This document shows positions 40,272 to 63,976 of a DNA stretch of 64,000 nt, one piece after another. This stretch comes from Rickettsiales bacterium. Lineage in GTDB: Bacteria > Pseudomonadota > Alphaproteobacteria > Rickettsiales > JABIRX01. The DNA is taken from positions 124-64,123 of the forward strand of contig JABJNB010000085.1 of NCBI GenBank assembly GCA_018659145.1, in the 5' to 3' direction. A model generated the notes under the pieces. It saw only the letters and a program-made list of their open reading frames with translations. It had not been told where the DNA came from and did not search any database. A program made the translations under genes and the position numbers. Position 1 is the stretch's first letter; the number at the start of each line of letters is the position of its first letter.

Positions 40272-40285
40272 TATACAAATATGTG

Positions 40286-41344: not shown

Positions 41345-41350
41345 GAGTTT

Positions 41351-44369: not shown

Positions 44370-45407
44370 TTAGATAATATATTTGATTATTGATAAACAT
44401 TTTTGTTTTAATGCAGATTGATGTTTTGATCCAGTAGAATATTTTCCGGCTAAAATAGCCTCTCTATTTTCGACATACCAATCATAAGTTTCTTGGAACA
44501 TTTTATAGCTAGAATATTGCGGTTTGAAACCAAGTAGTTTCTCAGCCTTGCTTATATCAAAATACATTGATCTACCATACATAAGTGAATGATAGCCACC
44601 AAGAGGCGATAGACCGAGTAAGCTTGTTACCTTCATTCCTGCGATAGTTAATCCCATTGGGACTGATTTTACTTTGCTTCCAGTGCCTGCATGCTTAGTT
44701 AAATTTTCTAACGTGTCACGCATTGAAGAAAATTCTTTAGCGCCGATATTAAAATCAGTATTTTCTTGATAAAACCCGGCTGCTATACAAGCATCCGCCA
44801 TATCGCTACTATGGATAAATTGATAAATATTATCGCCGCTACCAAGTACTGGAATATTGTAACCTTGATAGATCCATTCAAATAAAATTTGGAAAATACC
44901 AAGCCTGCCATGACCTAAAATTGTTCTAGGTCGTACAATAGAGATATTTAAACCTTTCTCTTTATATTCATGACATAATTCTTCTGCAGCATATTTGGCT
45001 TTACCATACTCCTCTTGTGGACTTGCTGAAGTTTGCTCGGTTACAGGATTATTTTCTGGCACGCCATAAACAGCGCTTGAAGAAGTATAAACAACTTTGG
45101 GAACGTTATTCTCTAAAGCTGCTTCTAAGATATTTTTGCTACCCTCATAATTAACTGACCAAAATAAGGCATTATCTTTTGCGATAGGAACTTGGGCGAC
45201 ATTGTGATGAATGATATCTATATTTTTGCAGGCATTATTTATTTGCTCGTAATTTCGTATATCACCTTGAATAAAGGTGAGATTCTTGTGATCGAATCCA
45301 GGCTTGTTCAGATCGAAAATTGTAACGTTATGGTCTTGATCTAGTAATTTTCTTGAAAGCGCTTCACCAAAAAAACCGCTGCCGCCTGTAACTAAAAGAT
45401 TGGTCAT
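44370..45407 (-). CDS. Extended SDR, NAD-dependent sugar epimerase/dehydratase/reductase family
   Basis: LLVTGGSGFFGEAL, catalytic YGKAKYAAE, and the SS triad region TSSSAVYG. 345 aa. Confidence 0.88.
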   Translation of the reverse strand: MTNLLVTGGSGFFGEALSRKLLDQDHNVTIFDLNKPGFDHKNLTFIQGDIRNYEQINNACKNIDIIHHNVAQVPIAKDNALFWSVNYEGSKNILEAALENNVPKVVYTSSSAVYGVPENNPVTEQTSASPQEEYGKAKYAAEELCHEYKEKGLNISIVRPRTILGHGRLGIFQILFEWIYQGYNIPVLGSGDNIYQFIHSSDMADACIAAGFYQENTDFNIGAKEFSSMRDTLENLTKHAGTGSKVKSVPMGLTIAGMKVTSLLGLSPLGGYHSLMYGRSMYFDISKAEKLLGFKPQYSSYKMFQETYDWYVENREAILAGKYSTGSKHQSALKQKCLSIIKYII

Positions 45408-45413
45408 TATTGT

Positions 45414-49970: not shown

Positions 49971-50753
49971 ATGCTGTTAACCAAAATAATCCAAAAAAGA
50001 AACTTACAAGCAGGAATAGCTTTGTTTAAACGGGATCTGTTAGTGTCGAGGCAAAAATCTTATCTGTCCATTGTATGGGATATCTCAGAGCCATTAATAT
50101 TGGCAGTTTTTTTCATACTATTATATCAAAGAAAAGTTTTTTCCGTGCCAAATGCGGGAATGAGTTATGGTTTATATGTCGCATTTGGCATGTTGCTATG
50201 GCAAAGTTTCTTAGAGGCGCTAACTCAGCCAATATCAATTTTTGACCGATATAAGAATTTATTTGCTCATGTAAAAATAAATAATGGGGTGATCTTATAT
50301 GCTTTGGTTTTTAGCTTGCTATATAACCTAGGTTTTAGGGTTATTATTATGTGTGCAATATTGGCTTATTATAAAAGCTTTGTCTTCCTTCATGTTTTGT
50401 TTTTTGTGTTTGCGAGTGTGCTTATTATAGTGCCAGGTATCTCTATTGGTTTTTTTTTGGCAGCATTTGGGCCTTTTCGGGAGGATATAAAAAGATTTAT
50501 CAGTTTGATTTCGCGCCCCTTAATGTTTCTAAGCTGCACTATCTTTCCAATGCCACCTTCTGGCGTGCTGTCTTATGTTAATTTTTTGAACCCTGCAGCA
50601 GTATTTATTAACAATATTAGGTATATAGCCGTGCATGGTAACTTTTATAACTTTGAGGCTCTAATAATATGGCTGATTGGCTTTTGTGTATTTTTTCTAT
50701 TCGCATGGAAGCTATTTAAATTTGCTATAAAATATTTAATGGAAAGATCATGA
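49971..50753 (+). CDS. wzm: ABC-2 type polysaccharide export permease
   Basis: 260 aa, six TM helices, N-terminal FKRDLLVSRQKSYLSIVWDISEPL typical of Wzm/KpsM/TagG. Its stop overlaps the start of the following ATPase gene. Confidence 0.85.
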   Translation: MLLTKIIQKRNLQAGIALFKRDLLVSRQKSYLSIVWDISEPLILAVFFILLYQRKVFSVPNAGMSYGLYVAFGMLLWQSFLEALTQPISIFDRYKNLFAHVKINNGVILYALVFSLLYNLGFRVIIMCAILAYYKSFVFLHVLFFVFASVLIIVPGISIGFFLAAFGPFREDIKRFISLISRPLMFLSCTIFPMPPSGVLSYVNFLNPAAVFINNIRYIAVHGNFYNFEALIIWLIGFCVFFLFAWKLFKFAIKYLMERS

Positions 50754-51982
50754 GTGCTCAGACTATAATTGTTAAAAATTTAAGTAAAAAATATACAAAA
50801 TTTCCTGATAAGAATAAATTCCGATTTTTATTTTCCTTATTACGAGAGTTCTTTTTTGATAAAGTTGATGACAATTTAAAAGGAGATGAATTTTGGGCTT
50901 TTAAAGACATTAACTTTACTTTGAATAAAGGTGAGGTTTTTGCAATTCTTGGGTCTAATGGTAGTGGTAAATCTACTCTTTTGAAGGCTATCTACGGATT
51001 GATAAAGACCACCTCTGGCGAGGTAGGTGTTAATGGTAGGGTGGATGCTTTGATTAATTTGGGGGCTGGTTTTAATCGAGATTTGTCAGGGCGTGATAAT
51101 ATTAAAAGCCATGCAGCGCTTCATAATTATCCAGTTGGTGGAATAGATGATTTGGTAGAGCAAGTTGTAGAATTTTCAGAATTAGGAGATTTTATAGATT
51201 CGCCAGTGAAAAACTATAGCTCTGGAATGTATTCAAGACTTGGTTTCTCGTTAATTACTCATATGAAGCCAGATGTTTTAATTATAGATGAAGTATTGGC
51301 TGTGGGTGATGTATCCTTCCAAAATAAATGCTTTGTGAAAATGCAGGAATTAAAAACTCAGGGTGTAACGTTTCTTATGGTATCTCATAACCAATCCCAG
51401 ATTGCACAATTTTGTGATCGTGCTTTATGGCTTGAGAAAGGTGAGTTTAAAGAATTGGGCGAGGCCGGTGAGGTTCTAAAGAAATATATCAAATATATGA
51501 ATGAGAAAAATTTTCATGTAGTTGATGAGGTAAAAAAGAATGGATCTAAACAATCAATATATGGGCCAATTCATAATTTTGAGAATCAAATTCAGAATGT
51601 AAAGGTGGAGATAGTTGGGGATAATGAGGAGGGTCAAATCATAACAGGTGGTAATGCGATTGTAGAATATGACTTTGAGCTATTAAAATCTGTTGAAAAT
51701 TTAAATGTATCGTTAAATTTTAGTAAAGAGGATGGTCGCCTTATGAGTACTATCAATACTGTAAATGGAGATCTATTGCGGTCAATTAAGAGTGGTAAAG
51801 TAAAATGCCGAGTTTATATTGAGGATTTGAATCTGAATCCGGGCATTTACGTGTTAGTATTTGTGGTTCAAGATAATCATCGTTATATCTACCGTAATAT
51901 TATAACAAAATTTAATATTTTAGCTTCGAATGATTTGGTATGGGGAGAGATTAATTTAAAATATAAATATCAGACTTTTTAA
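50750..51982 (+). CDS. wzt: Polysaccharide ABC transporter ATP-binding protein with a C-terminal extension
   Basis: GSNGSGKSTLLK, LSGRDNI, YSSGMYSRLGFS and LIIDEVLAVGD. An extra domain of about 150 aa follows the NBD, as in Wzt proteins that bind the terminal cap of the O-polysaccharide. Confidence 0.9.
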   Translation: MSAQTIIVKNLSKKYTKFPDKNKFRFLFSLLREFFFDKVDDNLKGDEFWAFKDINFTLNKGEVFAILGSNGSGKSTLLKAIYGLIKTTSGEVGVNGRVDALINLGAGFNRDLSGRDNIKSHAALHNYPVGGIDDLVEQVVEFSELGDFIDSPVKNYSSGMYSRLGFSLITHMKPDVLIIDEVLAVGDVSFQNKCFVKMQELKTQGVTFLMVSHNQSQIAQFCDRALWLEKGEFKELGEAGEVLKKYIKYMNEKNFHVVDEVKKNGSKQSIYGPIHNFENQIQNVKVEIVGDNEEGQIITGGNAIVEYDFELLKSVENLNVSLNFSKEDGRLMSTINTVNGDLLRSIKSGKVKCRVYIEDLNLNPGIYVLVFVVQDNHRYIYRNIITKFNILASNDLVWGEINLKYKYQTF

Positions 51983-53029
<1,047 letters not shown>

Positions 53030-55063
53030 ATGAACTTATCGATGTCTCAACAGAAATCTATTGCAATTTTTGCTCATAACTCCAAAGATGCATATTCTGG
53101 CGGGAGATATCATGCTTTTATTATAGCCCTTGCACTAGTGCGAGCTGGTTTTCGTGTGACGCTTGTGACAAATAACGTGCCGGTTTTTTATGATGATTTT
53201 TCTAATTATAAGGAAACCGAGAGTTTAAAAATTCACTTAGTTAAATCTTTTAAGCAGAAATATTTAAGCCAGTGTTTTGACATTGTTTTTTTGGTTCCAG
53301 GAATGGATGGTTACCATAATTCTAATATTTATAAATTGGCCCTCAGGCAGAAGAAGCAATTTGGATCCAAGTTATTTTTGTTGAATTTTGAGTCACCAAA
53401 TTGGTTTAATCAATATGCATCACAAAATCGTAGAGAATCTTTATGGGCTGGGTGGAAATTTGTGGCCAAACATAGTGATATGATTCTTTCGATGACAGAA
53501 GAGGCTGTTAAGTATGCAAAAGAATATTATGATGTAGATGATGTGCGGCATTCCTATTGCTATCCATCCATAAACAATCAAGCTATACAGAGTTTGCCAG
53601 ATTACCCGAAAGAAAAAAATATAATTTGCTTTTATCGCAGATCGCATGGCTCTCACAAAGGGGGTGGGGTAATAAAGGATCTGTTTGTGGAAGAAATGAG
53701 AGGCTATACTGTAAAGTTACTCTGCGGCCTAGATCTGCCCGATGGTAGAGACTATATCAAATTATTAGAATGCGCTAATATGTTTGGAATAAGGATTGAA
53801 GTTATTAGTCGGGTATCTGACATAGAAAAATTTACTGAATATAAAAAAGCAAAATTATTGATCTTTCCATCGCAATTTGAGGGTTTCGGATATCCTCCAG
53901 TTGAAGCATTAGCATGCAATACAGAATGCGCATGTTATGACCTCCCTGTGCTTAGGGAAACTTGTGGTAAGAAGTTAATTTATGCAAAACATTCTGATAT
54001 TAATGACCTAAAAGATAAAATAAGAAAATTTCTGAGAAAGAAAAGTAAAAAAAATCAGAATTATGCTGCAGAATTTATGCAGAAATATTCTTTAGACTCT
54101 ATGAGTAATAAGCTGGACTCTATTATAAGGGGGCTGGATACAAGGAAAGCAATAGAGGTATACCCCCATATTGGAGACTTAGAAGATATAAAGTTTTACC
54201 TCAAATCCTTTGCACTAAGTCGGAGTAGATTTTCTATTTGTAGTTACCGCTTTTTAAGATATTGCGTTCGGCGAACTAATCACTTGTATCATTACTATTT
54301 CTATCGGCCCTTGTCAGGCCAAGGCTATAAAAAGAATCTAATAGGGCAAGCAAAAAGCAATGCTAATACATCTATTCAAGGCTTACAAAATATTTATGAC
54401 TCCAAAAGGATTTTTATAATAGGCAATGGCCCAAGTGTGTCATATTCAGATCTAGAAAAGCTACAAAATGAGATATGCTTTTGTATGAATAGGTTTTCGA
54501 TGTGTTACGATAAGACTTCTTTTCGGCCAGACCTTACTTTTGTAGAAGATAAATTGATGATTAAGAGTCATATTAATAGTATCTTACAAAATGCCCAAAC
54601 GAGGGTTATTGCCCCTGAAATGTATACTAAAGAAATTGAGCATGAGTCGCTTATAAAATTTAAACTTTTGCCTAACCCAAGTGGAAAGAATCTTTCGCCT
54701 GATCATAATTCAGGAATTTATTTTGGTGCATCGGTAGTTTATAGTGCAATCCAAACTGCAATATGGTGTGGAGCCAAAGAGATATATTTATATGGCATTG
54801 ATCATTCAATGAATATTCCTAAAACTGTTGATAAAAAAGATAGTAGGATAGTTATTGCAAATAATGAAAATAATCATTTCATTAAAAATTATAGAGATAA
54901 AAATGAAGGATGGTGTTGTCCAGATTATCAAATGATTGATCAATCGTTTGATAATGCAAAAAAATATGCTGATAAAAATAACATTGTTATTAGAAATGCT
55001 ACAAGAGGTGGTAAGTTAGAAGTCTTTGAAAGGATTAATCTGGATGATTTATTTGAGAGATGA
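53030..55063 (+). CDS. Two-domain glycosyltransferase: N-terminal GT4 (GT-B) fused to a C-terminal MptE/DUF115 (Maf/CstII-like) domain
   Basis: Residues ~1-370 carry FPSQFEGFGYPPVEALAC (EX7E). Residues ~450-677 carry IFIIGNGPSVSY, CMNRF, AKEIYLYGIDHS and NNHFIKNY. These parallel C. jejuni CstII VIIAGNGPSLK, RCNQF, YKEIYLSGIDFY and NSHYIGH (from memory). Confidence 0.8.
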   Translation: MNLSMSQQKSIAIFAHNSKDAYSGGRYHAFIIALALVRAGFRVTLVTNNVPVFYDDFSNYKETESLKIHLVKSFKQKYLSQCFDIVFLVPGMDGYHNSNIYKLALRQKKQFGSKLFLLNFESPNWFNQYASQNRRESLWAGWKFVAKHSDMILSMTEEAVKYAKEYYDVDDVRHSYCYPSINNQAIQSLPDYPKEKNIICFYRRSHGSHKGGGVIKDLFVEEMRGYTVKLLCGLDLPDGRDYIKLLECANMFGIRIEVISRVSDIEKFTEYKKAKLLIFPSQFEGFGYPPVEALACNTECACYDLPVLRETCGKKLIYAKHSDINDLKDKIRKFLRKKSKKNQNYAAEFMQKYSLDSMSNKLDSIIRGLDTRKAIEVYPHIGDLEDIKFYLKSFALSRSRFSICSYRFLRYCVRRTNHLYHYYFYRPLSGQGYKKNLIGQAKSNANTSIQGLQNIYDSKRIFIIGNGPSVSYSDLEKLQNEICFCMNRFSMCYDKTSFRPDLTFVEDKLMIKSHINSILQNAQTRVIAPEMYTKEIEHESLIKFKLLPNPSGKNLSPDHNSGIYFGASVVYSAIQTAIWCGAKEIYLYGIDHSMNIPKTVDKKDSRIVIANNENNHFIKNYRDKNEGWCCPDYQMIDQSFDNAKKYADKNNIVIRNATRGGKLEVFERINLDDLFER

Positions 55064-56436
55064 GTGAGAGTCTCAACATATTGATTAGAGGTCCATTATG
55101 GACCGGTTGGACTTCGGGCTATTGTGCTTTTACAAGAGATATATTCGGACTATTTAATGCAATTACACCTAACGTTAGATATCAGTTCCATAGGAGGGAT
55201 GATATAATAGTTGGGAATTTAAAAAATTATTTTCTAAAACACGGAAATCTTCAGGATAAATACTATGATAGTGATGACATATCTCATTTTGACATAGTTA
55301 TTAATATAGGAACTCCTGCGGAAGTAGAGCTTATTCCGCATCTTAAGAATGTATTATATACATTCTGGGAAACGGATCTAATTAATACATATGACCTAGG
55401 TAGGGGACAGTCATGGACTGACTTGATGAACAAGTACAATGAAGTGTGGTCATCCTCTAATTTTGCTCTTGAGGTTTATAAGAAATCTGGCGTGACATCA
55501 AATCTAAGGGTTATTAGGTGGCCAATGACTTTTGACGATAATGAAAGATCTCAGCTATCAGATGAATCCAGTTCTGAGCGTATTTTTAACCCTAAGGAGC
55601 ATTTGTTGCTTAGGTTAGCTTTTGAAGCTTGTAAGAAATGGGGGATAGCATCAAAGATTAGGGGTGCTAAGTGGCCAATTGCTTTTGGTAAAAAGAGCGT
55701 TGCTAAATCAATAGATGGATTTAATTTTAACCGTCTTTTTAGCTCTAAAAAATACTCGCTTAATGAAATTATTGAGCAGCATAAATGTGTTTATTTCTCA
55801 TGCGGAGAGTTTCAGCCTAGGAAAAACTTTGAACAAATGATCCACAGCTTTTTACTTGCTTTGGGAAAAGAAAGTAAAGTATGTTTGATATTAAAGGTAT
55901 CTTTAGGATCTGTATCAAAGTTCAAAGATAGCAAAGATTTGATCAAGTATATTGAATCCAAATTTGCTTCCTACAGTGGCACTTTATCAAATATATATAT
56001 TATATGCTCGCATATACCAAAAGCGGCTTTGATGAGCATTCATTGCAAGGCGAGTTTTTATGTTACGACTTCGAAAGGAGAGGGGTTGGGTGGACCAATT
56101 ATTGATGCCATGAAAGAAAAAACACCAATAATAGCCCATACCTTCTCTTCATTTAAAGATTTCCTTAGCCAGGATAATGCAATTCTATTTGATTACCATC
56201 TTGAAAATGTAATAGGAATGCCTTTTCCGGCATATTCTGCTTTGCAAAAATGGGCAGCTTTTAAAACAAAGGATATTGTATCTGCATTTTCTGAGTCTTA
56301 TGAAATTTACGGCACGGAAAAATATACTGAGTTATCAGAATCAGCAAAGTCTAAAGCTTTTGAATTATTTGAATTTAATAATGTGAAAAAGGGTGTTACT
56401 CAAATTTTAGGATCGAATAATGAAATTATTAATTAG
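55060..56436 (+). CDS. GT4-family (GT-B) glycosyltransferase
   Basis: YTFWETDLI block and C-terminal TTSKGEGLGGPIIDAM (EX7E-type). Paralog of the next gene. Confidence 0.75.
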   Translation: MSESLNILIRGPLWTGWTSGYCAFTRDIFGLFNAITPNVRYQFHRRDDIIVGNLKNYFLKHGNLQDKYYDSDDISHFDIVINIGTPAEVELIPHLKNVLYTFWETDLINTYDLGRGQSWTDLMNKYNEVWSSSNFALEVYKKSGVTSNLRVIRWPMTFDDNERSQLSDESSSERIFNPKEHLLLRLAFEACKKWGIASKIRGAKWPIAFGKKSVAKSIDGFNFNRLFSSKKYSLNEIIEQHKCVYFSCGEFQPRKNFEQMIHSFLLALGKESKVCLILKVSLGSVSKFKDSKDLIKYIESKFASYSGTLSNIYIICSHIPKAALMSIHCKASFYVTTSKGEGLGGPIIDAMKEKTPIIAHTFSSFKDFLSQDNAILFDYHLENVIGMPFPAYSALQKWAAFKTKDIVSAFSESYEIYGTEKYTELSESAKSKAFELFEFNNVKKGVTQILGSNNEIIN

Positions 56437-57612
56437 AGGACCCTTTTTTTTAAAAGGTAATGGCTATGCTTCGGCATTAAAGGCTCATATTAATGTTTTT
56501 GCAGATGTTTTTGAACAAACGAAATTTGAGAATTTTAAACCTATTGGATTAAATGAAGTTGAAAGTAATTCGTATAATGATTTTATTACCAAAAATTTAA
56601 TATCGAGTAACTGGAAGCCAGATGTGACAATTAATTACCTTGCCCCCAATGTCGCACAAAAGTATCGTGGTTGCTTCAATATTATATTTACATACTGGGA
56701 AACGGATTTGATTCCTGGTAATGCTAATTCAAGTAATAGAACTAAGGAAAAGAACAATTGGGTTCAGCAATTAAATGGCTATGATTTAGTCTTAACTGCA
56801 TCAAGCTATGCTAAGCAAGCCTTCATAGATAGTGGTGTAGTTAGACCTATTGAAGTGCTTCCTTGGCCACTCGAGGAAGTCTCTTCTGAAGTAAATGCTC
56901 TTAATACAAATTTCTTAAATGTGATTAATGGAGAGGAGAGGGGACTTTTTGAAATACAAGCCAACAGTTCTTTTATCCTCTCGTCAATTGGTGAGTACCA
57001 AGCTAGAAAAAATTTTCATCAGTTAATTAAAAATTTCATTATTACTTTCTATAACGATAATTCTAAGGCATTAATTTTAAAGCTGTCAAATACTGGGGTG
57101 GCATTTTATAAAAGTAATATAATTATTCAGGACATTCAGCATTATATCAAAAGTATCAAGCTTCCTGAACCAGTGCGTTGCAGTATATATGTTTCTACTG
57201 AGCATTTAAGAAAATCCGAAATTATTAATATTTTACAATCATCAGACTATTATATTACAACCTCAAGAGGTGAGGGAATGGGGGGTCCTGTGATTGAGGC
57301 GCTAGATTTAGGAGTTCCAGTAATATCAGGTTGGCATACCTCTTTAAAAGATTTTTAAATCATAGTAATTCCATTCAAATAGATCATTATAGTGATTATA
57401 TACAAGAAAAGAACTCTGTTCATTATGAAGATCATCAGCAATGTGCTTATTACAGAGATGGATCAATCCAGCAGAGTCTTGTAGAGTCTTTAGAGAGGTC
57501 ACAGTCTTTTTCTAAAGAGAAAATTAAAAAAGAGATTAATAGTTTATTGGGCATGGAACGGAATAAACAATTGTTTAATAAAATTATTAAACAATATATA
57601 GGGCAAATATGA
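56420..57612 (+). pseudogene. GT4-family glycosyltransferase paralog, frameshifted in a T5 tract
   Basis: ORF 56420..57358 ends ...GWHTSLKDF, then TAA. The ORF at 57331..57612 continues in another frame with LNHSNSIQIDHYSDYI, matching SFKDFLSQDNAILFDYHLENV of the upstream paralog. One extra T in ttttt (57352-57356) would restore the frame. Confidence 0.65.
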
Positions 57613-57737: not shown

Positions 57738-58784
57738 ATGATTACTGTATCAATAATCGGCTTCGGAAAAATGGGGCAAATACGTGCCTCTGCTATAGAA
57801 AAAGTTGCATTAGCTAAAATAAAAAATGTATTTGATCCAAATGTAGCCGATTTAAAAAGTCAGTATCCTGTAGCTAAAAGTTATGCAGAGATATTGGATG
57901 ACTCTGAAATTGAGGCGGTGTTTTTATGTTTGGCCAATTATTTGAATAAAGAATATGCGATAAGAGCTCTAGAAGCAGGCAAGCATGTATTCTGTGAGAA
58001 GCCGCCGGCATTTAATGCAAGCGAGGTCGAAGAGATTATTGCGGCTGAGAAAAAATCTGGGAAAAAATTAATGTATGGATTTAATCATAGGCAACATGGG
58101 GCTGTGATTAGAATGAAGCAAGAAATTGATAGTGGAACCTTGGGCAAAGTCCTTTGGATGAGAGGGAGATACGGCAAGAGTGTAGATAAAGATTTTTATA
58201 ATTGTTGGCGCTCTGACAAGGAGCTATCTGGCGGCGGTATATTGCTTGATCAAGGAATTCATATGTTGGATTTATTTCTACATTTTGGCAAAAACTTTGA
58301 TGATGTACATGCTTTTGTGTCAAACCTATATTGGAAGTTAGATGGAATTGAGGATAATGTATTTGCAATTATGAGAAATAATGAGGATGGTATTGTAGCT
58401 TCGCTTCATTCTACCATGACACAATGGCGTCACTTATTTTCTCTAGAAGTATTCCTTGAGAAGGGTTATATGGTATTAAATGGCTTGAAGACTTCTTCTA
58501 ATACTTATGGAAAAGAAGAGTTAACGATTGCAAGGAATAGATCAACTGCTCCAGCTGCATCATGGGATGATGAAGAGAGGATAGAGTATGAAATTGATAA
58601 TTCTTGGCAAAATGAAGTTGATAGTTTCTTTGATGCTGTTATCAATGATTTGCCGATATCTTCTGGCTCCTCTCTGGATTCATTGAATGTTATGCGATTA
58701 ATTGATCGTATTTATGAAAATGAGACTAAGGTAAATGATGTGCTTCATGAAGATTTGCAGGCGATGGAAAAAGATACAATATAA
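57738..58784 (+). CDS. Gfo/Idh/MocA family NAD(P)-dependent sugar dehydrogenase
   Basis: N-terminal Rossmann motif IIGFGKMG, GKHVFCEKP (EKP motif) and GGGILLDQGIHMLD. Confidence 0.88.
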   Translation: MITVSIIGFGKMGQIRASAIEKVALAKIKNVFDPNVADLKSQYPVAKSYAEILDDSEIEAVFLCLANYLNKEYAIRALEAGKHVFCEKPPAFNASEVEEIIAAEKKSGKKLMYGFNHRQHGAVIRMKQEIDSGTLGKVLWMRGRYGKSVDKDFYNCWRSDKELSGGGILLDQGIHMLDLFLHFGKNFDDVHAFVSNLYWKLDGIEDNVFAIMRNNEDGIVASLHSTMTQWRHLFSLEVFLEKGYMVLNGLKTSSNTYGKEELTIARNRSTAPAASWDDEERIEYEIDNSWQNEVDSFFDAVINDLPISSGSSLDSLNVMRLIDRIYENETKVNDVLHEDLQAMEKDTI

Positions 58785-58789
58785 ATAAT

Positions 58790-59359
58790 ATGGACGATTA
58801 TAATACAGATTGGCTAGATGATTATTTTGATAGATATAAAAAATTAGCTTTCGAGAAAGAAATATACCCAGACCTAATTACTTTTAAGGAAATGGCCTTA
58901 GAAGTGAAGGCTAATAACAAAAAGATTATCTTTATTGGTAATGGGGCGAGCGCAGCAACGTCAAGCCATTGCGCTGTGGATTTTACTAAGCAAGCAGGAG
59001 TTAGGTCAATTACTTTTAATGAAGCTGGATTGCTTACTTGTTTTGCGAATGATTTTGGTTATGAGAACTCGCATGCTAAGGCGCTTGATTTTTACGCTTT
59101 AGAAGGTGATTTAGTGGTTTTGGTAAGCTGTAGTGGAAATTCGCCAAATATTGTAAAAGCTGCGGAATTTGCTAAATCAAAAGGTCTTAAAATAATTACA
59201 TTCACAGGATGCTCGGCAGATAACGCCTCAAGGCAGCTAGGTGATTTGAACTTTTGGGTTGATTCAAAAGCATATAACGTGATTGAATCTATTCATATGA
59301 TGTGGATTACTTGTGTGGTTGATTTAATTGTCGGTAAGGCTGAATATTCAGTTTCGTAA
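58790..59359 (+). CDS. SIS-domain sugar-phosphate isomerase, GmhA (sedoheptulose-7-phosphate isomerase)-like
   Basis: IGNGASAATSSHCAVDF, NDFGYEN, VSCSGNSPNIVKAAEFAKSKGLKIITFTG. These parallel E. coli GmhA GNGGS...H.A.E, NDFGF and STSGNSANVIKAI..A...GMKVITLTG. Confidence 0.88.
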   Translation: MDDYNTDWLDDYFDRYKKLAFEKEIYPDLITFKEMALEVKANNKKIIFIGNGASAATSSHCAVDFTKQAGVRSITFNEAGLLTCFANDFGYENSHAKALDFYALEGDLVVLVSCSGNSPNIVKAAEFAKSKGLKIITFTGCSADNASRQLGDLNFWVDSKAYNVIESIHMMWITCVVDLIVGKAEYSVS

Positions 59360-60154
59360 ATGCAAGAGCTGGCTACAAGATCATTTGAAGAGAAGGTAGA
59401 TTTTTACAATCACTTATACCTAGGTAAAAACACGCAAATTGTAGCAAAGGATTTCTATCCAAATAATCTGGAGGAAGCATATAAAATTCAGGCTTATATT
59501 CTGAAGAAGTCAGATTATGATTATCAAAACTTTAAATTAGGTGGTACTAATTTAGCAACTCAGAAGAAATTTAATGTAACAGATAGCTACTTTGGTAAAA
59601 TTGCTAATAAACATTGTCATCAGATTCAAAAACAACATCAAGTAATAGATCTAAAATCCGGTGATGAAGAATTATCTGCTGAACTAGAAATAATAATTGA
59701 ATTATCTAGAGATATTTCATTGAGTGAAAAGGTGGGTAGCCAGAAGATATCTGAACTAATATCGTCTTATACTATTGGTTTAGAATTTCCTACTAACTAT
59801 ATTGCAAATCTTGAGGCAGTCGGTGTTAATGGGCTCGTTGCTGAAAATTGTGCAGCAGGGTATTTAATTTGCGGTGAATTACTTTCGTATAAATCAAATA
59901 TTTTTAACCTTGGAGATAAGTTCGCAATTTATCAGGAAGATGTCTTATTGTCTCAAGGCTTATATGGCAATATTATAGGTGGTATTGAAGGGACTCTAAT
60001 TGACTTTATTAGGATTGCTCAGTTGCAAAATATTGCCCTTAGAAAAGGCTCCTTAATTGCAACAGGAGGTATCACAGAATGTATTAAGATATTAAGTGGG
60101 AAAACTATTAGGTTGGTGAGTAAGGTGTATGAGAAGAGTTTTAAGGTAATATAG
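59360..60154 (+). CDS. FAH-superfamily hydratase/dehydratase (MhpD/HpcG 2-oxo-4-enoate hydratase-like)
   Basis: EEAYKIQAYILKK..NFKLGGTNLATQKKFNV..SYFGKI and ELEIIIEL follow the AY.iQ...G.KiG.T....Q...v..P..G and E.EiA pattern of this family. Weaker recognition than for its neighbours. Confidence 0.65.
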   Translation: MQELATRSFEEKVDFYNHLYLGKNTQIVAKDFYPNNLEEAYKIQAYILKKSDYDYQNFKLGGTNLATQKKFNVTDSYFGKIANKHCHQIQKQHQVIDLKSGDEELSAELEIIIELSRDISLSEKVGSQKISELISSYTIGLEFPTNYIANLEAVGVNGLVAENCAAGYLICGELLSYKSNIFNLGDKFAIYQEDVLLSQGLYGNIIGGIEGTLIDFIRIAQLQNIALRKGSLIATGGITECIKILSGKTIRLVSKVYEKSFKVI

Positions 60155-60157
60155 TTA

Positions 60158-60946
60158 ATGGATTTAATCGCTGTAAAATTGCAAGAGGCTGTTAAAGCAT
60201 CAGTTATTGGTATTGATCAAGTAAATTGCTTGGGTGAGATAGAAAGTAAATCTAGGCATGATTATGTTTCCAAGCTTGATTTAGAATTGCAAAATCGCCT
60301 TATTATTAATATTGCTAAAATATTGCCGGGGACCGAGATTTATAGTGAAGAGAATGTATCCGAGTATCAGGATATAAAAGGGAATGCAGTTATTATTGAT
60401 CCTCTCGATGGTACTTTTAACGCTATATCAGAAATTCCATTTTATGCTATATCCATTGCTTATATTAAGGATAATATACCGGTTATTGGCATTACTTATG
60501 ACATAAAAAATGATGAAATATTTGTTGGAATTAAGAACCTAGGCATGTTCGTTAATGGTAAGAAGGCTCTTGCAAATATAAAGCATGAATTTAGTAAATC
60601 TATAGCGATCAGCAGTGGGTTTATAGAGTTGGCTGCACGTAAGAATCCTAAGATATTATCTGCACTTGGGGAAGAGGCGAGGATTAGGATGCTTGGCTCC
60701 CAAGCATTACAACTTGCTTATGTGGCGGCTGGAAGGATTAGAGCTAATATTAATTATGAAGCAAAATATTGGGATGATATAGCCGGGTATGTTATGCTTA
60801 ATGAAATGGGTTTTGTATACGGAGATTTTAATGGTCAGAAGATTTTTCCAAAATCTTATATAGACTCAAAAGAGAATTTAAAGTCATTTGCTTATCATCC
60901 AAATGATAGTGAGAAATTAGCTAATATTTTAAAAGATTTGATATGA
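60158..60946 (+). CDS. Inositol monophosphatase family sugar-phosphate phosphatase
   Basis: Metal-binding motifs EE (YSEEN), IIDPLDGTFN and YWDDIAGY. Confidence 0.85.
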   Translation: MDLIAVKLQEAVKASVIGIDQVNCLGEIESKSRHDYVSKLDLELQNRLIINIAKILPGTEIYSEENVSEYQDIKGNAVIIDPLDGTFNAISEIPFYAISIAYIKDNIPVIGITYDIKNDEIFVGIKNLGMFVNGKKALANIKHEFSKSIAISSGFIELAARKNPKILSALGEEARIRMLGSQALQLAYVAAGRIRANINYEAKYWDDIAGYVMLNEMGFVYGDFNGQKIFPKSYIDSKENLKSFAYHPNDSEKLANILKDLI

Positions 60947-61608
60947 CAAAGACTATTGCTATGATACCGGCCCGAATGGGTAGCCAGAGGTTAAAAAAGA
61001 AGAATTTATGTGAAATTTTGCCCGGAATCACATTAATTGAATATGTTATTAACAAGTGTTTAGCAGCTGAGTGCTTTGATGAAGTGTGGATTAATTCTGA
61101 GAATGAAGAATTTTCCAAATTTGCCGATAATAAAAACATTTTTTTTCATAAAAGGCCAGAGAAGTTAGGTGATAATAACGCAACTAGTGAGCAATTTATA
61201 TATGAGTTTTTGCAGAGCCATGAGTCTACTCACATAGTGCAGGTTCATTCTATAGCCCCGCTTCTCACCATAAATGAAATTAAAAGCTTTACGAATTTTT
61301 TTGTAGAATCGGATAACAATGTATTACTGTCATATATTGCAGATCAAATTGAATGTGTTTATTTAGATAAGCCGGTTAATTTTACTTTTAATAAAAAAAC
61401 TAATTCTCAAGACTTATCGCCGATCCAAAGAGTAACATGGAGTATTACTGGCTGGAAATCAGATGATTATATCCGGGCCTATGAAGCTGGAGAATGTGCT
61501 ACATATTCTGGCAAAATAGGTTTTTATGAGGTGGATAAAATTTCTGGACATGTGATTAAAACTCAGCATGATCTGGACATTGCAAAAGCATTATTGGAGA
61601 CTTTATAA
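60943..61608 (+). CDS. Acylneuraminate/Kdo-type cytidylyltransferase (CMP-ulosonic acid synthetase family)
   Basis: IAMIPARMGSQRLKKKNL matches the IPAR.GS.R...KN P-loop of the NeuA/KdsB/PseF family. 221 aa. Confidence 0.85.
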   Translation: MTKTIAMIPARMGSQRLKKKNLCEILPGITLIEYVINKCLAAECFDEVWINSENEEFSKFADNKNIFFHKRPEKLGDNNATSEQFIYEFLQSHESTHIVQVHSIAPLLTINEIKSFTNFFVESDNNVLLSYIADQIECVYLDKPVNFTFNKKTNSQDLSPIQRVTWSITGWKSDDYIRAYEAGECATYSGKIGFYEVDKISGHVIKTQHDLDIAKALLETL

Positions 61609-62537
61609 TGAAACAACGGATTCTTGTATCAAATATTATGATGCTCAAAGAAAGGGAGCGTTTTCAAGCTATTTTAGAATCACATGATTTAGAGCCAATA
61701 TTTCCTAAGGTAGGACAATTTCTTTCTGAGGCGGAATTATTAGGATATGCTGGGAATATTGATGCTATGCTTGCTGGTGATGATCATATTACGCGACACT
61801 TTCTTGAGAAGGCTGTTCCAAGGCTTAAGGTTATTTCTAAATGGGGTACGGGTATTGACTCTATAGACCTGTCTGCAGCGAAAGAGTTGGGGATTAAAGT
61901 TTGTAACTCACCGGCGGCATTTAGTGATGCTGTGGCTGATGTAGCTTTGGGATATATAATTGACTTGTATCGTAGTATTAGCTTAATTGACCGACAGGTT
62001 CGAAGTGGGGCATGGCCAAAACCAACGGGGTTTGTTTTGCGAGGCAAAACATTAGGCATGATAGGATTCGGTGCAATTGGTAGAGCTATAGCGGAGAGAG
62101 CAAAGGCTTTTGGTATGGATGTTGTCTACTTTGATGTTAAGCAAGGGGATGCCATGCAAGGTGCTAGTTTTGTCAAGACAGAAGAGGTTTTTAAGCAATC
62201 TGATGTTATTTGTTTAGCATGTAATCTAACAGCTGATAATCACCACTTGATTGATAGTAAGGCGATTTCATTAATGAAAAACGATGTTAAAATAGTTAAT
62301 GTGGCAAGAGGACCTTTGATTAAGGAGGTTGATTTAATTGCTGCTTTAGAGCAGGAATCAATAGGGGGCGTAGCTTTAGATGTATTTGAAGATGAGCCAA
62401 TTTGCCAGAGTTCTGGTTTATTAAAATTTAACAATACTATTTTTGGGTCGCATAATGCCAATAATGCTTTTGAGGCCAATGAATATGTGCATCAAAATAC
62501 AATAAATAATTTATTAGATGGCCTTGGCAAACTATAA
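61608..62537 (+). CDS. D-isomer-specific 2-hydroxyacid dehydrogenase
   Basis: NAD motif GMIGFGAIGRAIAERAKAFGMDV, plus VNVARG and the catalytic region ...FGSHNA. Confidence 0.9.
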   Translation: MKQRILVSNIMMLKERERFQAILESHDLEPIFPKVGQFLSEAELLGYAGNIDAMLAGDDHITRHFLEKAVPRLKVISKWGTGIDSIDLSAAKELGIKVCNSPAAFSDAVADVALGYIIDLYRSISLIDRQVRSGAWPKPTGFVLRGKTLGMIGFGAIGRAIAERAKAFGMDVVYFDVKQGDAMQGASFVKTEEVFKQSDVICLACNLTADNHHLIDSKAISLMKNDVKIVNVARGPLIKEVDLIAALEQESIGGVALDVFEDEPICQSSGLLKFNNTIFGSHNANNAFEANEYVHQNTINNLLDGLGKL

Positions 62538-63231
62538 AAGAAGTTATTTTGCTAATGAATATAGTATATTTGCTCATTTGTGGCAAAGTATTCTAACTAC
62601 TTATAATTTAGCAATTGAAGCAAGAGGAGAGTTTAATTTAATGCTCTCAGGTGGTAACACACCAATTAGATTTTATAATTACTTGCTGGTAGCCGAGGAT
62701 CTTGAATTGATCGATTGGGCGCAGGTGAATATTTTCTTTTCGGATGAGCGTTATGTTGATCAAAGTTCAGATGATAATAATTGTAAGCAGGCCCGGGAGC
62801 ATTTTTTAGATAAATTAACTACAAGGAATATCTTTGATTTTAAAACTGATTTATCACCTGAGGCCGCAGCTCAAGATATGTCGGATCGAACAAAGAAGCA
62901 TTTTGCTCTTGGCGATGGAGAGGTTCCAGCATTTGATTTTTGCTTTTTAGGATTTGGAGAGGATGGACATTTTGCCTCCATTTTTCCAGAGGTGCCCTTA
63001 GATGAGATAGGGGAAGAAATTTGCTATAGTCGGTTTATTGATAAACTTAAAAAGCATAGATTAACTTTTTCGCTTAAGGTCATGCATAATGCGAAAGCGT
63101 TGGTGTTTATTGTTAGCAATGCTAATAAAAAAAGATTAATGGAGGATTTAGGATCCCGAGCTCAAAAGCTGCCGATTGATTATCTTGAGTCTCATAATAA
63201 TATTGAATGGTTGGTGTTGGATGAGTCTTAA
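62518..63231 (+). CDS. 6-phosphogluconolactonase family (sugar-phosphate lactonase / NagB superfamily)
   Basis: LSGGNTPIRFY, FFSDERYV and FLGFGEDGHFASIFP, the three signature blocks of Pgl/DevB lactonases. Confidence 0.85.
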   Translation: MALANYKRSYFANEYSIFAHLWQSILTTYNLAIEARGEFNLMLSGGNTPIRFYNYLLVAEDLELIDWAQVNIFFSDERYVDQSSDDNNCKQAREHFLDKLTTRNIFDFKTDLSPEAAAQDMSDRTKKHFALGDGEVPAFDFCFLGFGEDGHFASIFPEVPLDEIGEEICYSRFIDKLKKHRLTFSLKVMHNAKALVFIVSNANKKRLMEDLGSRAQKLPIDYLESHNNIEWLVLDES

Positions 63232-63976
63232 AAGTTGTTTGCGCAATAAATACCATCTCGTGCGAAAAGTTATTTTGACTCCGATTCGATCTAGGGCTAA
63301 AGCAGAATTGCGATCTTATAAAAATTTACATAAAGGCAAAAAAGTTATTATTATTGGCAACGGCCCAAGTGTCAGGCTAGAAGATTTAGAACAATTTAAA
63401 GATTATGTTACATTTAGCTGTAATCGATTTCACTTATGTTATAAAGATACGGGCTTTAGACCTACGTATACAGTATGTATTGACCCTAATATGATTAGGG
63501 ATTTTGGTCACGACATTGCTAAGAATTGTGAGAATGATTTGTTTATATCTAGTTCTAATATAACTAAAAACCATGATAATGCCAAATATATTTATCGACA
63601 TAGAACTCTACCATTTGTTTTTAGCGAAGATGTAGCGGAGTATGTTTCGAATGGATCATCGGTTGTATGTGTAGCGATGCAGATAGCTTGCTATATGGGG
63701 GCAAAAGAGATTTATCTTTATGGTGTGGACCATTCATTTGAGTATAGTAAGGGAGCTGCTTTGTGGGATAGTAAATCGGTGAGAGGAGATAATAATCACT
63801 TCATTGATAATTACAGAAGTAATAAAAAATGGCGGGCCCCTCAAACAGAGGAAATCGAAGATAGTTATCAGATGTGTAAAGCATGGCTTAAGGAGCATGA
63901 TATTTCAATATTTAATATTTCGCGTAAAACAAAATTGGATATTTTTCCAAAATTAAATATTGAAAAGATCGATTAA
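63221..63976 (+). CDS. Stand-alone MptE/DUF115 (Maf/CstII-like) putative CMP-ulosonic-acid transferase
   Basis: VIIIGNGPSVRLEDL, SCNRF, AKEIYLYGVDHS and NNHFIDNY. Clear paralog of residues ~450-677 of the 53030..55063 product. The ATG at 63221 is preferred (the track start at 63176 is TTG). Confidence 0.75.
   Translation: MSLKSCLRNKYHLVRKVILTPIRSRAKAELRSYKNLHKGKKVIIIGNGPSVRLEDLEQFKDYVTFSCNRFHLCYKDTGFRPTYTVCIDPNMIRDFGHDIAKNCENDLFISSSNITKNHDNAKYIYRHRTLPFVFSEDVAEYVSNGSSVVCVAMQIACYMGAKEIYLYGVDHSFEYSKGAALWDSKSVRGDNNHFIDNYRSNKKWRAPQTEEIEDSYQMCKAWLKEHDISIFNISRKTKLDIFPKLNIEKID

Follow-up and report, generated by a model that had tools for sequence, protein, structure and literature searches.

How might a bacterium make a CMP-activated keto-sugar acid when the genes at hand include no enzyme to condense a sugar with PEP? 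This question is raised by eight co-directional genes near the end of a 64,000-nucleotide stretch of DNA (the window) from contig JABJNB010000085.1 of a Rickettsiales bacterium, within an O-antigen locus of an uncultured marine alphaproteobacterium. An earlier note, made from the sequence alone, had pointed to these genes and read them as an aldolase-independent, Entner-Doudoroff-style route to a CMP-activated 3-deoxy-ulosonic acid, possibly from a heptose phosphate. We find that the genes belong to a widespread set, of which we found no published description, and that an aldolase-free route is supported, whereas the specific dehydration route to a 3-deoxy heptose acid is not.

The eight genes of the window

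The observation in the earlier note holds: all eight open reading frames are present on the + strand, the junctions between them run from a 5-base gap to a 20-base overlap, and the family assignments hold.

57738..58784 (+), Gfo/Idh/MocA NAD(P)-dependent sugar oxidoreductase, 348 aa
58790..59359 (+), divergent GmhA/DiaA-like SIS-domain sugar-phosphate isomerase, 189 aa
59360..60154 (+), MhpD/HpcG/4-oxalocrotonate-decarboxylase-like enzyme of predicted FAH fold (metal-dependent), 264 aa
60158..60946 (+), inositol-monophosphatase (IMPase)-family phosphatase, 262 aa
60943..61608 (+), NeuA/KdsB-family cytidylyltransferase, 221 aa
61608..62537 (+), D-isomer-specific 2-hydroxyacid dehydrogenase, 309 aa
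62518..63231 (+), 6-phosphogluconolactonase (Pgl)-family lactonase, 237 aa
63221..63976 (+), MptE-like (DUF115; Maf/CstII-like) putative transferase, 251 aa

The first gene matches PF01408, PF22725 and PF02894, shows the EKP and D-x3-H motifs, and has DgpA, glucose-fructose oxidoreductase, aldose-aldose oxidoreductase and 1,5-anhydrofructose reductase as its nearest solved relatives. The SIS protein matches PF13580 and PF01380, and its best NCBIfam hit is gmhA (TIGR00441), although at 84 bits it falls far below the cut-off of 209.45. In an alignment to B. pseudomallei GmhA, the metal/catalytic residues H64, E68, Q175 and H183 read H, D, E and T in the window protein, such that one of the four positions is lost.

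The 264-aa protein has no Pfam hit. However, its AlphaFold model (pLDDT 70.7) gave 8ih6, 1sv6, 5d2i and 2eb6 as the top Foldseek hits (E 5e-15 to 1e-11), indicating an MhpD/HpcG/NahK-like fold, and a profile of its family hits MhpD at E 1.2e-19, with the Lys and the three metal-binding Glu aligned. These residues (K59, E108, E110 and E142) are invariant in 30 relatives. The close family is very rare, with 4-5 proteins, while the wider family has 429 representatives.

The phosphatase matches PF00459 at 120.5 bits and shows the DPLDGT and WDD motifs; its best NCBIfam hit, the bifunctional FBPase/IMPase family, is below cut-off. The cytidylyltransferase matches PF02348 but scores far below every NCBIfam equivalog cut-off (PseF 58.8 against 205.7, KdsB models at 44 bits or less), and its nearest structures are CMP-Neu5Ac synthetases at E 4e-10. 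The 2-hydroxyacid dehydrogenase matches PF02826 and PF00389, with the Arg, Glu/Asp and His catalytic positions visible, and its nearest relatives are phosphoglycerate dehydrogenase 1wwk (E 2e-52), glyoxylate/hydroxypyruvate reductases and a probable 2-ketogluconate reductase, 9m0t. The lactonase matches PF01182, passes the TIGR01198 pgl cut-off (149.6 bits against 124.45) and shows the GEDGHFAS motif. The final protein matches PF01973 (60.7 bits against a cut-off of 34.6), with a weak N-terminal similarity to the C. jejuni CstII sialyltransferase (E 8e-5). Two small corrections to the earlier note concern this last gene. Its open reading frame opens at a TTG at 63176, but it most likely starts at the ATG at 63221, as called on four other contigs, and since it ends at 63976 it is complete, although the locus continues beyond the window.

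The surrounding locus

The genes upstream indicate an ABC-transporter-dependent O-polysaccharide locus.

49971..51982 (+), Wzm (ABC-2 permease, 49971-50753; PF01061) and Wzt (ATPase with a C-terminal Wzt_C glycan-binding domain, 50750-51982; PF00005 and PF14524)
52004..53029 (+), GDP-mannose 4,6-dehydratase (PF16363, 452 bits)
53030..55063 (+), GT1 plus MptE-like fusion glycosyltransferase, 677 aa (PF00534 and PF01973)
55060..57612 (+), two GT1-like glycosyltransferase genes between the polymerase-like fusion gene and the eight genes (weak PF00534 and PF13692 hits)

Wzm and Wzt also adjoin the gene set in several other loci. The GDP-mannose 4,6-dehydratase is not part of the set and would supply another sugar of the same polysaccharide; a ManC lies at 38329-39750. 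The fusion protein is the likely polymerase or transferase of the same glycan and a second candidate user of the CMP-sugar; homologous multi-domain GT1/MptE-like proteins adjoin the set in 21 of 80 loci, including those of Pseudoalteromonas spongiae, Leisingera and Sinorhizobium fredii SMH12. The second of the two GT1-like genes (56420-57612) is split in the window into 312-aa and 93-aa pieces but is a single 397-aa gene on the JGI contig that carries the identical lactonase, and the stop lies next to an A/T run at 57345-57358.

A conserved cassette in varying order

We next asked whether the arrangement is a chance neighbourhood. The same eight genes in the same order recur on an independent contig, L005, at 51-75% identity, and variants recur in dozens of metagenome loci with shuffled gene order. 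The signature gene is the cytidylyltransferase, which belongs to a distinct and tightly conserved family of more than 1,500 homologues, the top 120 of them at 56-79% identity, with a mean column identity of 72% across Alpha- and Gammaproteobacteria and Omnitrophica and 528 confirmed metagenomic loci. Related sets occur in P. spongiae, in Leisingera, on two metagenome-assembled chromosomes (these four being loci L008, L009, L011 and L012), on the S. fredii SMH12 megaplasmid and in Paenibacillus cellulosilyticus.

In the 15 loci with at least 5 kb on both sides of the cytidylyltransferase, Gfo/Idh/MocA is present in 13, the 2-hydroxyacid dehydrogenase in 12, IMPase in 11 and SIS in 10, and we regard these four with the cytidylyltransferase as the five core genes. 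The FAH-like enzyme and the lactonase are accessory. The FAH-like gene, which defines a 'type A' cassette, occurs in 14 of 80 loci and never together with a DUF386 protein that takes its place in 'type B' cassettes and matches the N-acetylneuraminate anomerase family. The Pgl-type lactonase is present in 13-14 loci, and in Leisingera it is replaced by an unrelated SGL/gluconolactonase-family gene. Homologues of the MptE-like protein adjoin the cassette in loci L005, L008, L012 and L018. Some loci (L040 and L092) carry only the cytidylyltransferase, a Pgl-like gene and an MptE-like gene, meaning either that the other genes lie elsewhere in those genomes or that the precursor can come from central metabolism. 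This census rests on our own calling of open reading frames on metagenome contigs, many of them short.

No PEP-condensing synthase accompanies the set

The earlier note saw no NeuB or KdsA, which is correct for the window, and held that a canonical synthase set immediately downstream that accounted for the cytidylyltransferase would overturn its reading. A NeuB does lie about 6 kb downstream, but within a full pseudaminic-acid PseB/C/F/G/H/I set with its own cytidylyltransferase, PseF, and so does not account for the cytidylyltransferase of the cassette. No NeuB or KdsA was found within about 10 kb of the cytidylyltransferase in L008, L009, L011 or L012, these being every long locus with precomputed Pfam calls, and no synthase-like family recurs when the proteins of 86 loci are clustered. 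Synthases encoded far from the cassette, however, cannot be excluded.

A proposed route through oxidation of a sugar phosphate

We propose, with moderate confidence and by genomic inference alone, that the cassette makes a CMP-activated 2-ulosonic (2-keto) sugar acid without any PEP- or pyruvate-condensing synthase, the copy in the window being of type A with lactonase and transferase. In this view, the SIS isomerase would convert a ketose phosphate to the aldose phosphate, the Gfo/Idh/MocA enzyme would oxidise C1 to the lactone phosphate, and the lactonase would open this to the aldonate phosphate, a step that can also occur spontaneously, which would explain why the lactonase is optional. 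The 2-hydroxyacid dehydrogenase would then oxidise the C2-OH to give the 2-keto acid phosphate, and the FAH-like enzyme, where present, would modify this 2-oxo acid at C3/C4, the candidates being C3 epimerisation through the metal-bound enolate or 4-OH elimination, although this role is speculative. Finally, the phosphatase would remove the phosphate, the cytidylyltransferase would make the CMP-sugar, and the MptE-like protein and/or the upstream GT1-MptE fusion would transfer it to the polysaccharide.

The recruitment of two unrelated lactonase families points to oxidation of an aldose at C1. A 2-keto acid intermediate is suggested by the core 2-hydroxyacid dehydrogenase, by the accessory MhpD-like enzyme, which keeps the Lys and three-Glu metal site of enzymes that bind 2-oxo acids, and by the sialate-anomerase homologue of type B cassettes. 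However, Gfo/Idh/MocA enzymes also oxidise C2, C3 or C4 positions, and the best solved relative, DgpA, is a 3-oxidase. What our analysis shows is the families and folds, the intact catalytic motifs, the conserved co-occurrence and the absence of an accompanying synthase, whereas every substrate, the order of steps, the regiochemistry of the Gfo enzyme, the carbon number (C6 and C7 both being possible) and the role of the FAH-like enzyme are inferred.

Alternative readings

The interpretation in the earlier note is partly supported. Our analysis supports its reading that the eight genes form one functional module, that this module ends in a NeuA/KdsB-family cytidylyltransferase and a CstII/Maf-like transferase, that it contains a sugar C1-oxidation and lactonase step, and that it lacks a PEP-condensing synthase. 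Its specific scheme, in which the FAH-fold protein dehydrates a heptonate phosphate, derived from sedoheptulose-7-P through GmhA, to a 2-keto-3-deoxy acid phosphate that is then dephosphorylated and CMP-activated, we consider unlikely. In its favour, a GmhA-like SIS, a dehydrogenase and a lactonase are present, FAH-fold enzymes do act on 2-keto-3-deoxy sugar acids, the PF02348 substrates characterised so far are 3-deoxy, near-canonical GmhA genes follow the cassette in two loci, and the minimal cytidylyltransferase, Pgl and MptE modules could in principle draw on KDPG from a cellular Entner-Doudoroff pathway. However, the FAH-like gene is only an accessory, type B cassettes contain no candidate dehydratase at all, and MhpD-class enzymes act at C3-C4 of acids that are already 2-oxo, not on aldonates. 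No Edd/IlvD-type or enolase-type aldonate dehydratase is present in the window or in the four long loci, leaving the 3-deoxy product unsupported. The scheme also leaves the core 2-hydroxyacid dehydrogenase with no role, although this is the natural generator of the 2-keto group, with precedents in KguD/2-ketogluconate reductases, PdxB and SerA, all from that family. The heptose origin is weak, given the low score of the cassette SIS against GmhA and its lost position, and since the near-canonical GmhA genes sit separately beside the cassette.

Another way to view the cassette is that it does not build the carbon skeleton, but tailors Kdo-8-P or a nonulosonic acid made by a synthase encoded elsewhere (a housekeeping KdsA or the neighbouring Pse set), through oxidation/reduction epimerisation by Gfo and the 2-hydroxyacid dehydrogenase, before dephosphorylating and CMP-activating the variant (a 'Kdx'). 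This would parallel capsule loci that carry only kpsF and kpsU, and capsule loci do often duplicate only the SIS isomerase and the cytidylyltransferase of the Kdo pathway (PMC13171606). The Gfo/Idh/MocA (YjhC) and DUF386 (NanQ) families are known to act on sialic acids, PF05159 Kdo-transferase-like genes lie beside the cassette, and Sinorhizobium K antigens contain Kdo derivatives (PMC4881576). We nevertheless find this doubtful, since two recruited lactonase families fit aldose C1 oxidation and not the tailoring of an acid that already has its carboxylate, the SIS is GmhA/DiaA-like and not KdsD/KpsF-like, the cytidylyltransferase is far from the KdsB and PseF equivalogs, and the cassette also occurs in Paenibacillus, a Gram-positive organism that is not expected to make Kdo. 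It is likewise unlikely, in our view, that the product is not an ulosonic acid but an aldonic or other hydroxy acid, or a polyol phosphate, cytidylylated as a phosphodiester donor (CDP- or CMP-linked, teichoic-acid-like), or that the genes serve two separate pathways that merely travel together. That every substrate is inferred leaves room for this, 2-hydroxyacid dehydrogenases often run in the reducing direction (the relatives of the window protein are mostly reductases), and the MptE-like fold is a general nucleotide-binding fold. However, CDP activation needs the phosphate to stay, yet a phosphatase is a core gene; the PF02348 members characterised so far make CMP-ulosonates; the DUF386 homologue and the MhpD-like enzyme both point to a 2-keto acid; and the five core genes stay together despite shuffled order across phyla.

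Comparison with known CMP-ulosonate pathways

The characterised PF02348 substrates are 3-deoxy-2-ulosonic acids, such that a 3-hydroxy or 4-deoxy ulosonic acid would be without precedent for this family, and this weighs against our proposal. In other respects the cassette follows the logic of CMP-ulosonate synthesis, with a PF02348 cytidylyltransferase, a phosphatase before activation as in the Kdo and Neu5Ac pathways, a CstII-like/MptE-like transferase, and PF05159 KpsC/KpsS-type genes beside the cassette both downstream of the window and in S. fredii SMH12. Where it would differ, if our reading is right, is in reaching the keto-sugar acid by oxidising a sugar phosphate and not by the usual PEP condensation.

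The gene set and its family assignments

The region 57738-63976 holds eight ORFs, all on the + strand, whose junctions range from a 5-base gap to a 20-base overlap. In order, they encode:

Gfo/Idh/MocA oxidoreductase
SIS-domain protein
264-aa protein without a Pfam hit, MhpD/FAH-like in predicted fold
IMPase-family phosphatase
PF02348 cytidylyltransferase (predicted)
D-2-hydroxyacid dehydrogenase
6-phosphogluconolactonase-family protein
MptE-like protein, which probably starts at 63221 (251 aa) and ends at 63976, inside the window

Comparison with Pfam and NCBIfam confirmed seven of the eight family assignments, and the gene set described in the earlier note is real. The SIS-domain protein has gmhA as its best NCBIfam hit, but at only 84 bits on TIGR00441 against a cut-off of 209.45. 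It is equally similar to DiaA, and at the catalytic/metal positions H64, E68, Q175 and H183 of B. pseudomallei GmhA it reads H, D, E and T. The lactonase, in contrast, scores 149.6 bits on TIGR01198, above the curated cut-off of 124.45, and carries the GEDGHFAS active-site motif. The D-2-hydroxyacid dehydrogenase has both PF02826 (178 bits) and PF00389 (70.6 bits) domains, and the catalytic Arg, Glu/Asp and His can be read directly from its translation. It reaches no equivalog cut-off, however (192 against 454 for PGDH). The MptE-like protein scores 60.7 on PF01973 against a cut-off of 34.6, and gives a weak, N-terminal-only match to the sialyltransferase CstII (E 8e-5). A scan for promoters and terminators found no more sites than in shuffled sequence, and so is uninformative about operon limits.

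The cytidylyltransferase scores 64.2 bits on PF02348 against 22.6, and its closest structures are CMP-Neu5Ac synthetases. It falls below the equivalog cut-offs of the known types, scoring 58.8 against 205.7 on the PseF model TIGR03584 and 18-44 bits on KdsB models with cut-offs of 155-281. Instead, it belongs to its own family, for which NCBIfam has no equivalog.

For the 264-aa protein, an AlphaFold model built on its four close homologues (pLDDT 70.7) matched MhpD, HpcG and 4-oxalocrotonate decarboxylase at Foldseek E 5e-15 to 1e-11, with a TM of about 0.7. A 30-sequence profile hit MhpD (1sv6) at E 1e-19, with the catalytic Lys and the three metal-binding Glu (E-x-E...E) aligned, and these residues are invariant in 30 relatives. 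The protein itself does not reach the Pfam PF01557 threshold, although distant relatives do. The earlier note's assignment to the MhpD/FAH family is therefore right at the fold level. The context, however, is a polysaccharide locus with no aromatic meta-cleavage genes.

The surrounding polysaccharide locus

Upstream on the same strand lie Wzm and a Wzt with a C-terminal glycan-binding domain, a GDP-mannose 4,6-dehydratase, a 677-aa GT1 plus MptE-like fusion, two more GT1-like genes and, further upstream, ManC. This is an ABC-transporter-dependent O-polysaccharide locus. UvrA places the organism among uncultured marine Alphaproteobacteria, the best named hits being a metagenome-assembled alphaproteobacterium at 77% and Rickettsiales at about 65%.

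A GT1-like gene at 56420-57612 is split into ORFs of 312 aa and 93 aa at an A/T run near 57345-57358, yet it is an intact 397 aa on the JGI contig that carries the identical lactonase. This is a frameshift, either real or an assembly error. The D-Ala-D-Ala ligase gene (33832-35021) is also split, into 100-aa and 290-aa ORFs in different frames, and a second split gene, this one usually essential, suggests sequencing or assembly frameshifts in this contig. On the minus strand, 39858-47249 carries a divergent PAP2 (DUF212), an SDR epimerase, a UbiA-family prenyltransferase, a GMC oxidoreductase, two small membrane proteins (one SMR-like), a second SDR and a 611-aa GT-C (PMT_2-like) protein. This cluster resembles decaprenyl-phospho-arabinose-type pathways for a lipid-linked sugar donor, with a GMC oxidoreductase where DprE1 would be. 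Two large ORFs, at 29390-31993 (-, 867 aa) and 47492-49948 (+, 818 aa), have no significant Pfam or NCBIfam hit. The second has only a faint YfhO-like match and sits directly upstream of wzm.

The 49-kb JGI contig with the identical lactonase (JGI 3300072015; L001, 2275-3050) shows what follows the window. Directly after the cassette come a near-canonical GmhA (196 aa, 188 bits on gmhA), a GmhB-like HAD phosphatase, a 501-aa KpsC/KpsS-like PF05159 protein, a complete pseudaminic-acid set (PseB, PseC, PseF, PseG, PseH and the NeuB-type PseI) and a diacylglycerol-kinase-like gene. The earlier note had named a downstream synthase set accounting for the cytidylyltransferase as the observation that would overturn its reading. 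The NeuB about 6 kb downstream of the window does not fill that role, because the Pse set brings its own PF02348 gene, PseF, and the window enzyme scores far below the PseF cut-off. The locus may therefore encode two different CMP-activated acids.

Distribution of the cassette

The 264-aa protein is very rare in close form: a word-indexed search found only four close proteins, one of whose loci (contig L005) carries all eight genes in the same order. An exhaustive profile search gave 429 unnamed representatives of the wider family. Scanning genomes with a narrow alignment returned only two distant relatives, in a Saprospiraceae genome and in an alphaproteobacterial single-cell genome. The one examined, in the alphaproteobacterium (L007, 8305-13204; 25% identity), lies among genes for a class IV aminotransferase, a sulfotransferase, an ABC-2 transporter and a PhyH dioxygenase, an unrelated context. 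The wider family is therefore not specific to this cassette. A search of a plasmid collection with the FAH-like protein at E 1e-8 found nothing, although a copy exists in Sinorhizobium fredii at lower similarity.

The cytidylyltransferase was the more informative probe. It has more than 1,500 homologues, whose source annotations are generic, and the best 120 of these are 56-79% identical. Mean column identity is 72% across Alpha- and Gammaproteobacteria and Omnitrophica, and a metagenome scan confirmed at least 528 loci.

Gene contexts of the cytidylyltransferase family in selected loci (genes in order)
Pseudoalteromonas spongiae (L008): Gfo, SIS, acyltransferase, FAH-like, IMPase, cytidylyltransferase, 2-hydroxyacid dehydrogenase, Pgl, MptE-like; next to Wzt
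Leisingera (L009): Gfo, unknown, SIS, IMPase, cytidylyltransferase, 2-hydroxyacid dehydrogenase, MptE-like, then an SGL gluconolactonase-family gene in place of Pgl
Two metagenome-assembled chromosomes (L011, L012): further variants of the set
Sinorhizobium fredii SMH12 megaplasmid (L093): 2-hydroxyacid dehydrogenase, Gfo, SIS, FAH-like, IMPase, cytidylyltransferase; beside two PF05159 capsule genes
Paenibacillus cellulosilyticus (L094): DUF386, cytidylyltransferase, SIS, 2-hydroxyacid dehydrogenase, IMPase, methyltransferase-like, Gfo

The S. fredii SMH12 copy, a type A cassette (plasmid psfSMH12a, record 1536664-1561308), additionally lies beside a 1361-aa GT1 protein, a WcbI+GSCFA protein and IS66/integrase genes, making this a capsule (KPS)-type region in a cultured rhizobium. 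We found no published K-antigen structure for this strain.

We then called ORFs on all fetched loci and scored them against the window proteins.

Gene presence among the 15 loci with at least 5 kb on both sides of the cytidylyltransferase
Gfo: 13
2-hydroxyacid dehydrogenase: 12
IMPase: 11
SIS: 10
FAH-like: 5
Pgl: 5
DUF386: 4

Across 80 loci, the FAH-like gene (14 loci) and DUF386 (16 loci) never occur together. DUF386 loci have a more divergent 2-hydroxyacid dehydrogenase and often a roughly 320-aa protein, with no Pfam or NCBIfam hit, that we read by eye as methyltransferase-like. We therefore distinguish type A cassettes (FAH-like, as in the window) from type B cassettes (DUF386 in place of the FAH-like gene; L025, L026, L060, L068, L069, L075, L076, L079 and L094). 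The DUF386 (YhcH) protein matches the N-acetylneuraminate anomerase family at 97.6 bits, below the equivalog cut-off of 160. A 316-aa protein in Leisingera is not FAH-like (hhalign probability 0.5%). It matches the roughly 320-aa family of type B cassettes, but only weakly (36 bits).

No PEP-condensing synthase is encoded among the eight genes. No PF03102 or KdsA-type family lies within about 10 kb of the cytidylyltransferase in L008, L009, L011 or L012, and no NeuB- or KdsA-like family is recurrent in 86 loci. Likewise, no Edd/IlvD-family or enolase-superfamily aldonate dehydratase domain was found in the window cassette or in related loci. A few Wzx/Wzy loci, among them L040 (4423-7035) and L092 (10004-12120), carry only the cytidylyltransferase, a Pgl-like gene and an MptE-like gene, with Gfo, SIS, IMPase and the 2-hydroxyacid dehydrogenase missing from the stretch in view. 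Either the rest is encoded elsewhere or the precursor comes from central metabolism. We rejected chance juxtaposition as an explanation for the gene set, because the core recurs in shuffled order across phyla.

A proposed aldolase-independent route to a CMP-activated sugar acid

The five-gene core fits a linear route with an optional lactonase and an optional 2-oxo-acid enzyme. In this view, the SIS protein would convert a ketose phosphate to an aldose phosphate, which Gfo would oxidise to the lactone phosphate. This would be opened to the aldonate phosphate by Pgl or SGL, or spontaneously, and the 2-hydroxyacid dehydrogenase would then yield the 2-keto-aldonate phosphate. An optional change at C3/C4 by the MhpD-like enzyme, or ring opening/closing by DUF386, would precede removal of the phosphate by the IMPase, CMP activation and transfer by MptE-like proteins. 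Recruitment of two unrelated lactonase families is the best single sign of a C1 oxidation. The 2-hydroxyacid dehydrogenase family includes enzymes that interconvert aldonate phosphates and their 2-keto forms, such as KguD, PdxB and SerA, and a 2-ketogluconate reductase is among the hits of the window protein. Both alternative accessory enzymes belong to families that handle 2-oxo or ulosonic acids, and a phosphatase placed before cytidylylation mirrors the Kdo and Neu5Ac pathways. While the gene families, their conserved residues and the recurrence of the set without a recurrent PEP-condensing synthase beside it are results of the analysis, all substrates, the order of steps and the carbon number are inferred, as are the catalytic activities, including cytidylylation, the action of the FAH-like enzyme and the use of a CMP-sugar donor by the MptE-like protein. 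We consider this reading about as likely as not.

The interpretation in the earlier note was borne out only in part. Its general idea, an aldolase-free route to a CMP-activated sugar acid, is supported by comparative genomics, but its Entner-Doudoroff, 3-deoxy and heptose details are not. Its scheme omits the 2-hydroxyacid dehydrogenase, a core gene, and relies on the FAH-fold protein as an aldonate dehydratase, whereas that protein is accessory, absent from most cassettes, and of the MhpD class, which acts on acids that are already 2-oxo. As no Edd/IlvD-type or enolase-type dehydratase is present, a 3-deoxy product has no support. A heptose origin is possible but weak, given the divergence of the cassette SIS from GmhA, and separate near-canonical GmhA genes (188-190 bits) sit next to the cassette in two loci. 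We regard this scheme as unlikely. Tailoring of Kdo or a nonulosonic acid made by a distant synthase has precedent in capsule loci that carry only kpsF and kpsU, but does not explain the lactonases, the GmhA-like SIS or the Paenibacillus copy, and we hold it to be improbable. A non-ulosonic, phosphodiester-type product conflicts with a core phosphatase and seems equally doubtful as the scheme of the note.

A bolder possibility, which we offer only tentatively, is that this represents a third, aldolase-independent way of making CMP-activated ulosonic acids, widespread in marine bacteria, rhizobia and some Firmicutes. A ketose phosphate would have its C1 oxidised to a carboxylate in four steps (isomerase, C1 dehydrogenase, lactonase, 2-hydroxyacid dehydrogenase), yielding a 2-ulosonic acid that is not 3-deoxy, a class of sugar donor not yet known. 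In type A cassettes the MhpD-like enzyme may go on to eliminate the 4-OH and give a 4-deoxy-2-ulosonic acid, of the kind reported chemically (a 4-deoxy-2-hexulosonic acid) in the E. coli K3 capsule (Dengler et al. 1988, cited in PMC10433991), for whose biosynthesis we found no account. The K3 locus was unassigned in 2023, and term searches did not find it in the 2026 capsule-typing paper. At the DNA level, blastn of the window and P. spongiae genes against 5,426 E. coli genomes found nothing, and the link to K3 remains conjectural. In S. fredii SMH12, the product would be an undetermined acid component of a capsule-type (KPS-like) polysaccharide. In Sinorhizobium, strain-specific genes in the rkp-3 region determine the K-antigen structure, in Rm41 by making its pseudaminic-acid residue (PMC4881576), and the SMH12 copy beside KpsC/S-type genes is therefore a good experimental entry point.

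Literature searches covering the enzymes, DUF115/DUF386, ulosonic acids and SMH12 found no description of this gene set. All known CMP-activated sugars (Kdo, sialic, pseudaminic and legionaminic acids and their relatives) get their 2-keto-3-deoxy acid head from a PEP or pyruvate aldol condensation. A route that reaches a CMP-ulosonic acid by oxidising a sugar phosphate would add a new biosynthetic logic, and probably a new class of acidic surface sugar, one that would be missed by current genome mining, which keys on NeuB and KdsA. The cassette is common in marine metagenomes and also occurs in culturable, genetically tractable strains (P. spongiae, Leisingera, S. fredii SMH12 and P. cellulosilyticus), so the idea can be tested directly. 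It could also explain orphan sugars such as 4-deoxy-2-hexulosonic acid and unidentified rhizobial 'Kdx' residues, and would supply new enzymes for making CMP-sugar analogues.

Comparison with known pathways

The proposed chemistry of C1 oxidation to a lactone, Pgl-type hydrolysis and interconversion of 2-hydroxy and 2-keto acid phosphates has direct precedents in oxidative sugar-phosphate and 2-keto-aldonate metabolism (Zwf/Pgl; the 2-keto-6-phosphogluconate reductase KguD; oxidation of aldonate phosphates to 2-oxo acids by PdxB and SerA). Those, however, are catabolic or cofactor pathways and are not known to be coupled to a cytidylyltransferase and a glycosyltransferase, and here the C1 dehydrogenase is Gfo/Idh/MocA rather than Zwf. 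With MhpD, HpcG and NahK (2-oxopent-4-enoate hydratase, 2-oxo-hept-3-ene-1,7-dioate hydratase and 4-oxalocrotonate decarboxylase of the FAH superfamily), the 264-aa protein shares its predicted fold, its length and the conserved Lys and three Glu metal ligands. Identity is about 15%, though, and its substrate is presumably a polyhydroxylated 2-oxo acid. The sialic-acid salvage enzymes NanQ/YhcH and YjhC find counterparts in the DUF386 protein of type B cassettes and, distantly, in the cassette Gfo enzyme, but the setting is biosynthetic rather than catabolic and DUF386 is absent from the window's own type A cassette.

Relative to the CMP-nonulosonic acid pathways (Neu5Ac, pseudaminic and legionaminic acid: NeuB/PseI/LegI plus NeuA/PseF/LegF, with Maf/CstII-type transferases), the cytidylyltransferase is closest to CMP-Neu5Ac synthetases and PseF, the putative transferase is MptE-like with weak similarity to CstII, and a complete Pse set lies immediately downstream in the same locus. 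The cassette itself has no NeuB-type synthase, aminotransferase or acetyltransferase, and its precursor genes are sugar-phosphate rather than nucleotide-sugar enzymes. With the CMP-Kdo pathway (KdsD/KpsF, KdsA, KdsC, KdsB/KpsU), the proposed route shares its overall logic of a SIS-domain sugar-phosphate isomerase, a phosphorylated 2-keto acid, a dedicated phosphatase and a PF02348 cytidylyltransferase, as well as its location in ABC-transporter polysaccharide loci next to PF05159 (KpsC/S-like) genes. It differs in that the SIS is GmhA/DiaA-like rather than KdsD-like, the phosphatase is of the IMPase family rather than HAD, the cytidylyltransferase scores 44 bits or less on KdsB models and, in place of a KdsA-type PEP aldolase, there stand two dehydrogenases and a lactonase.
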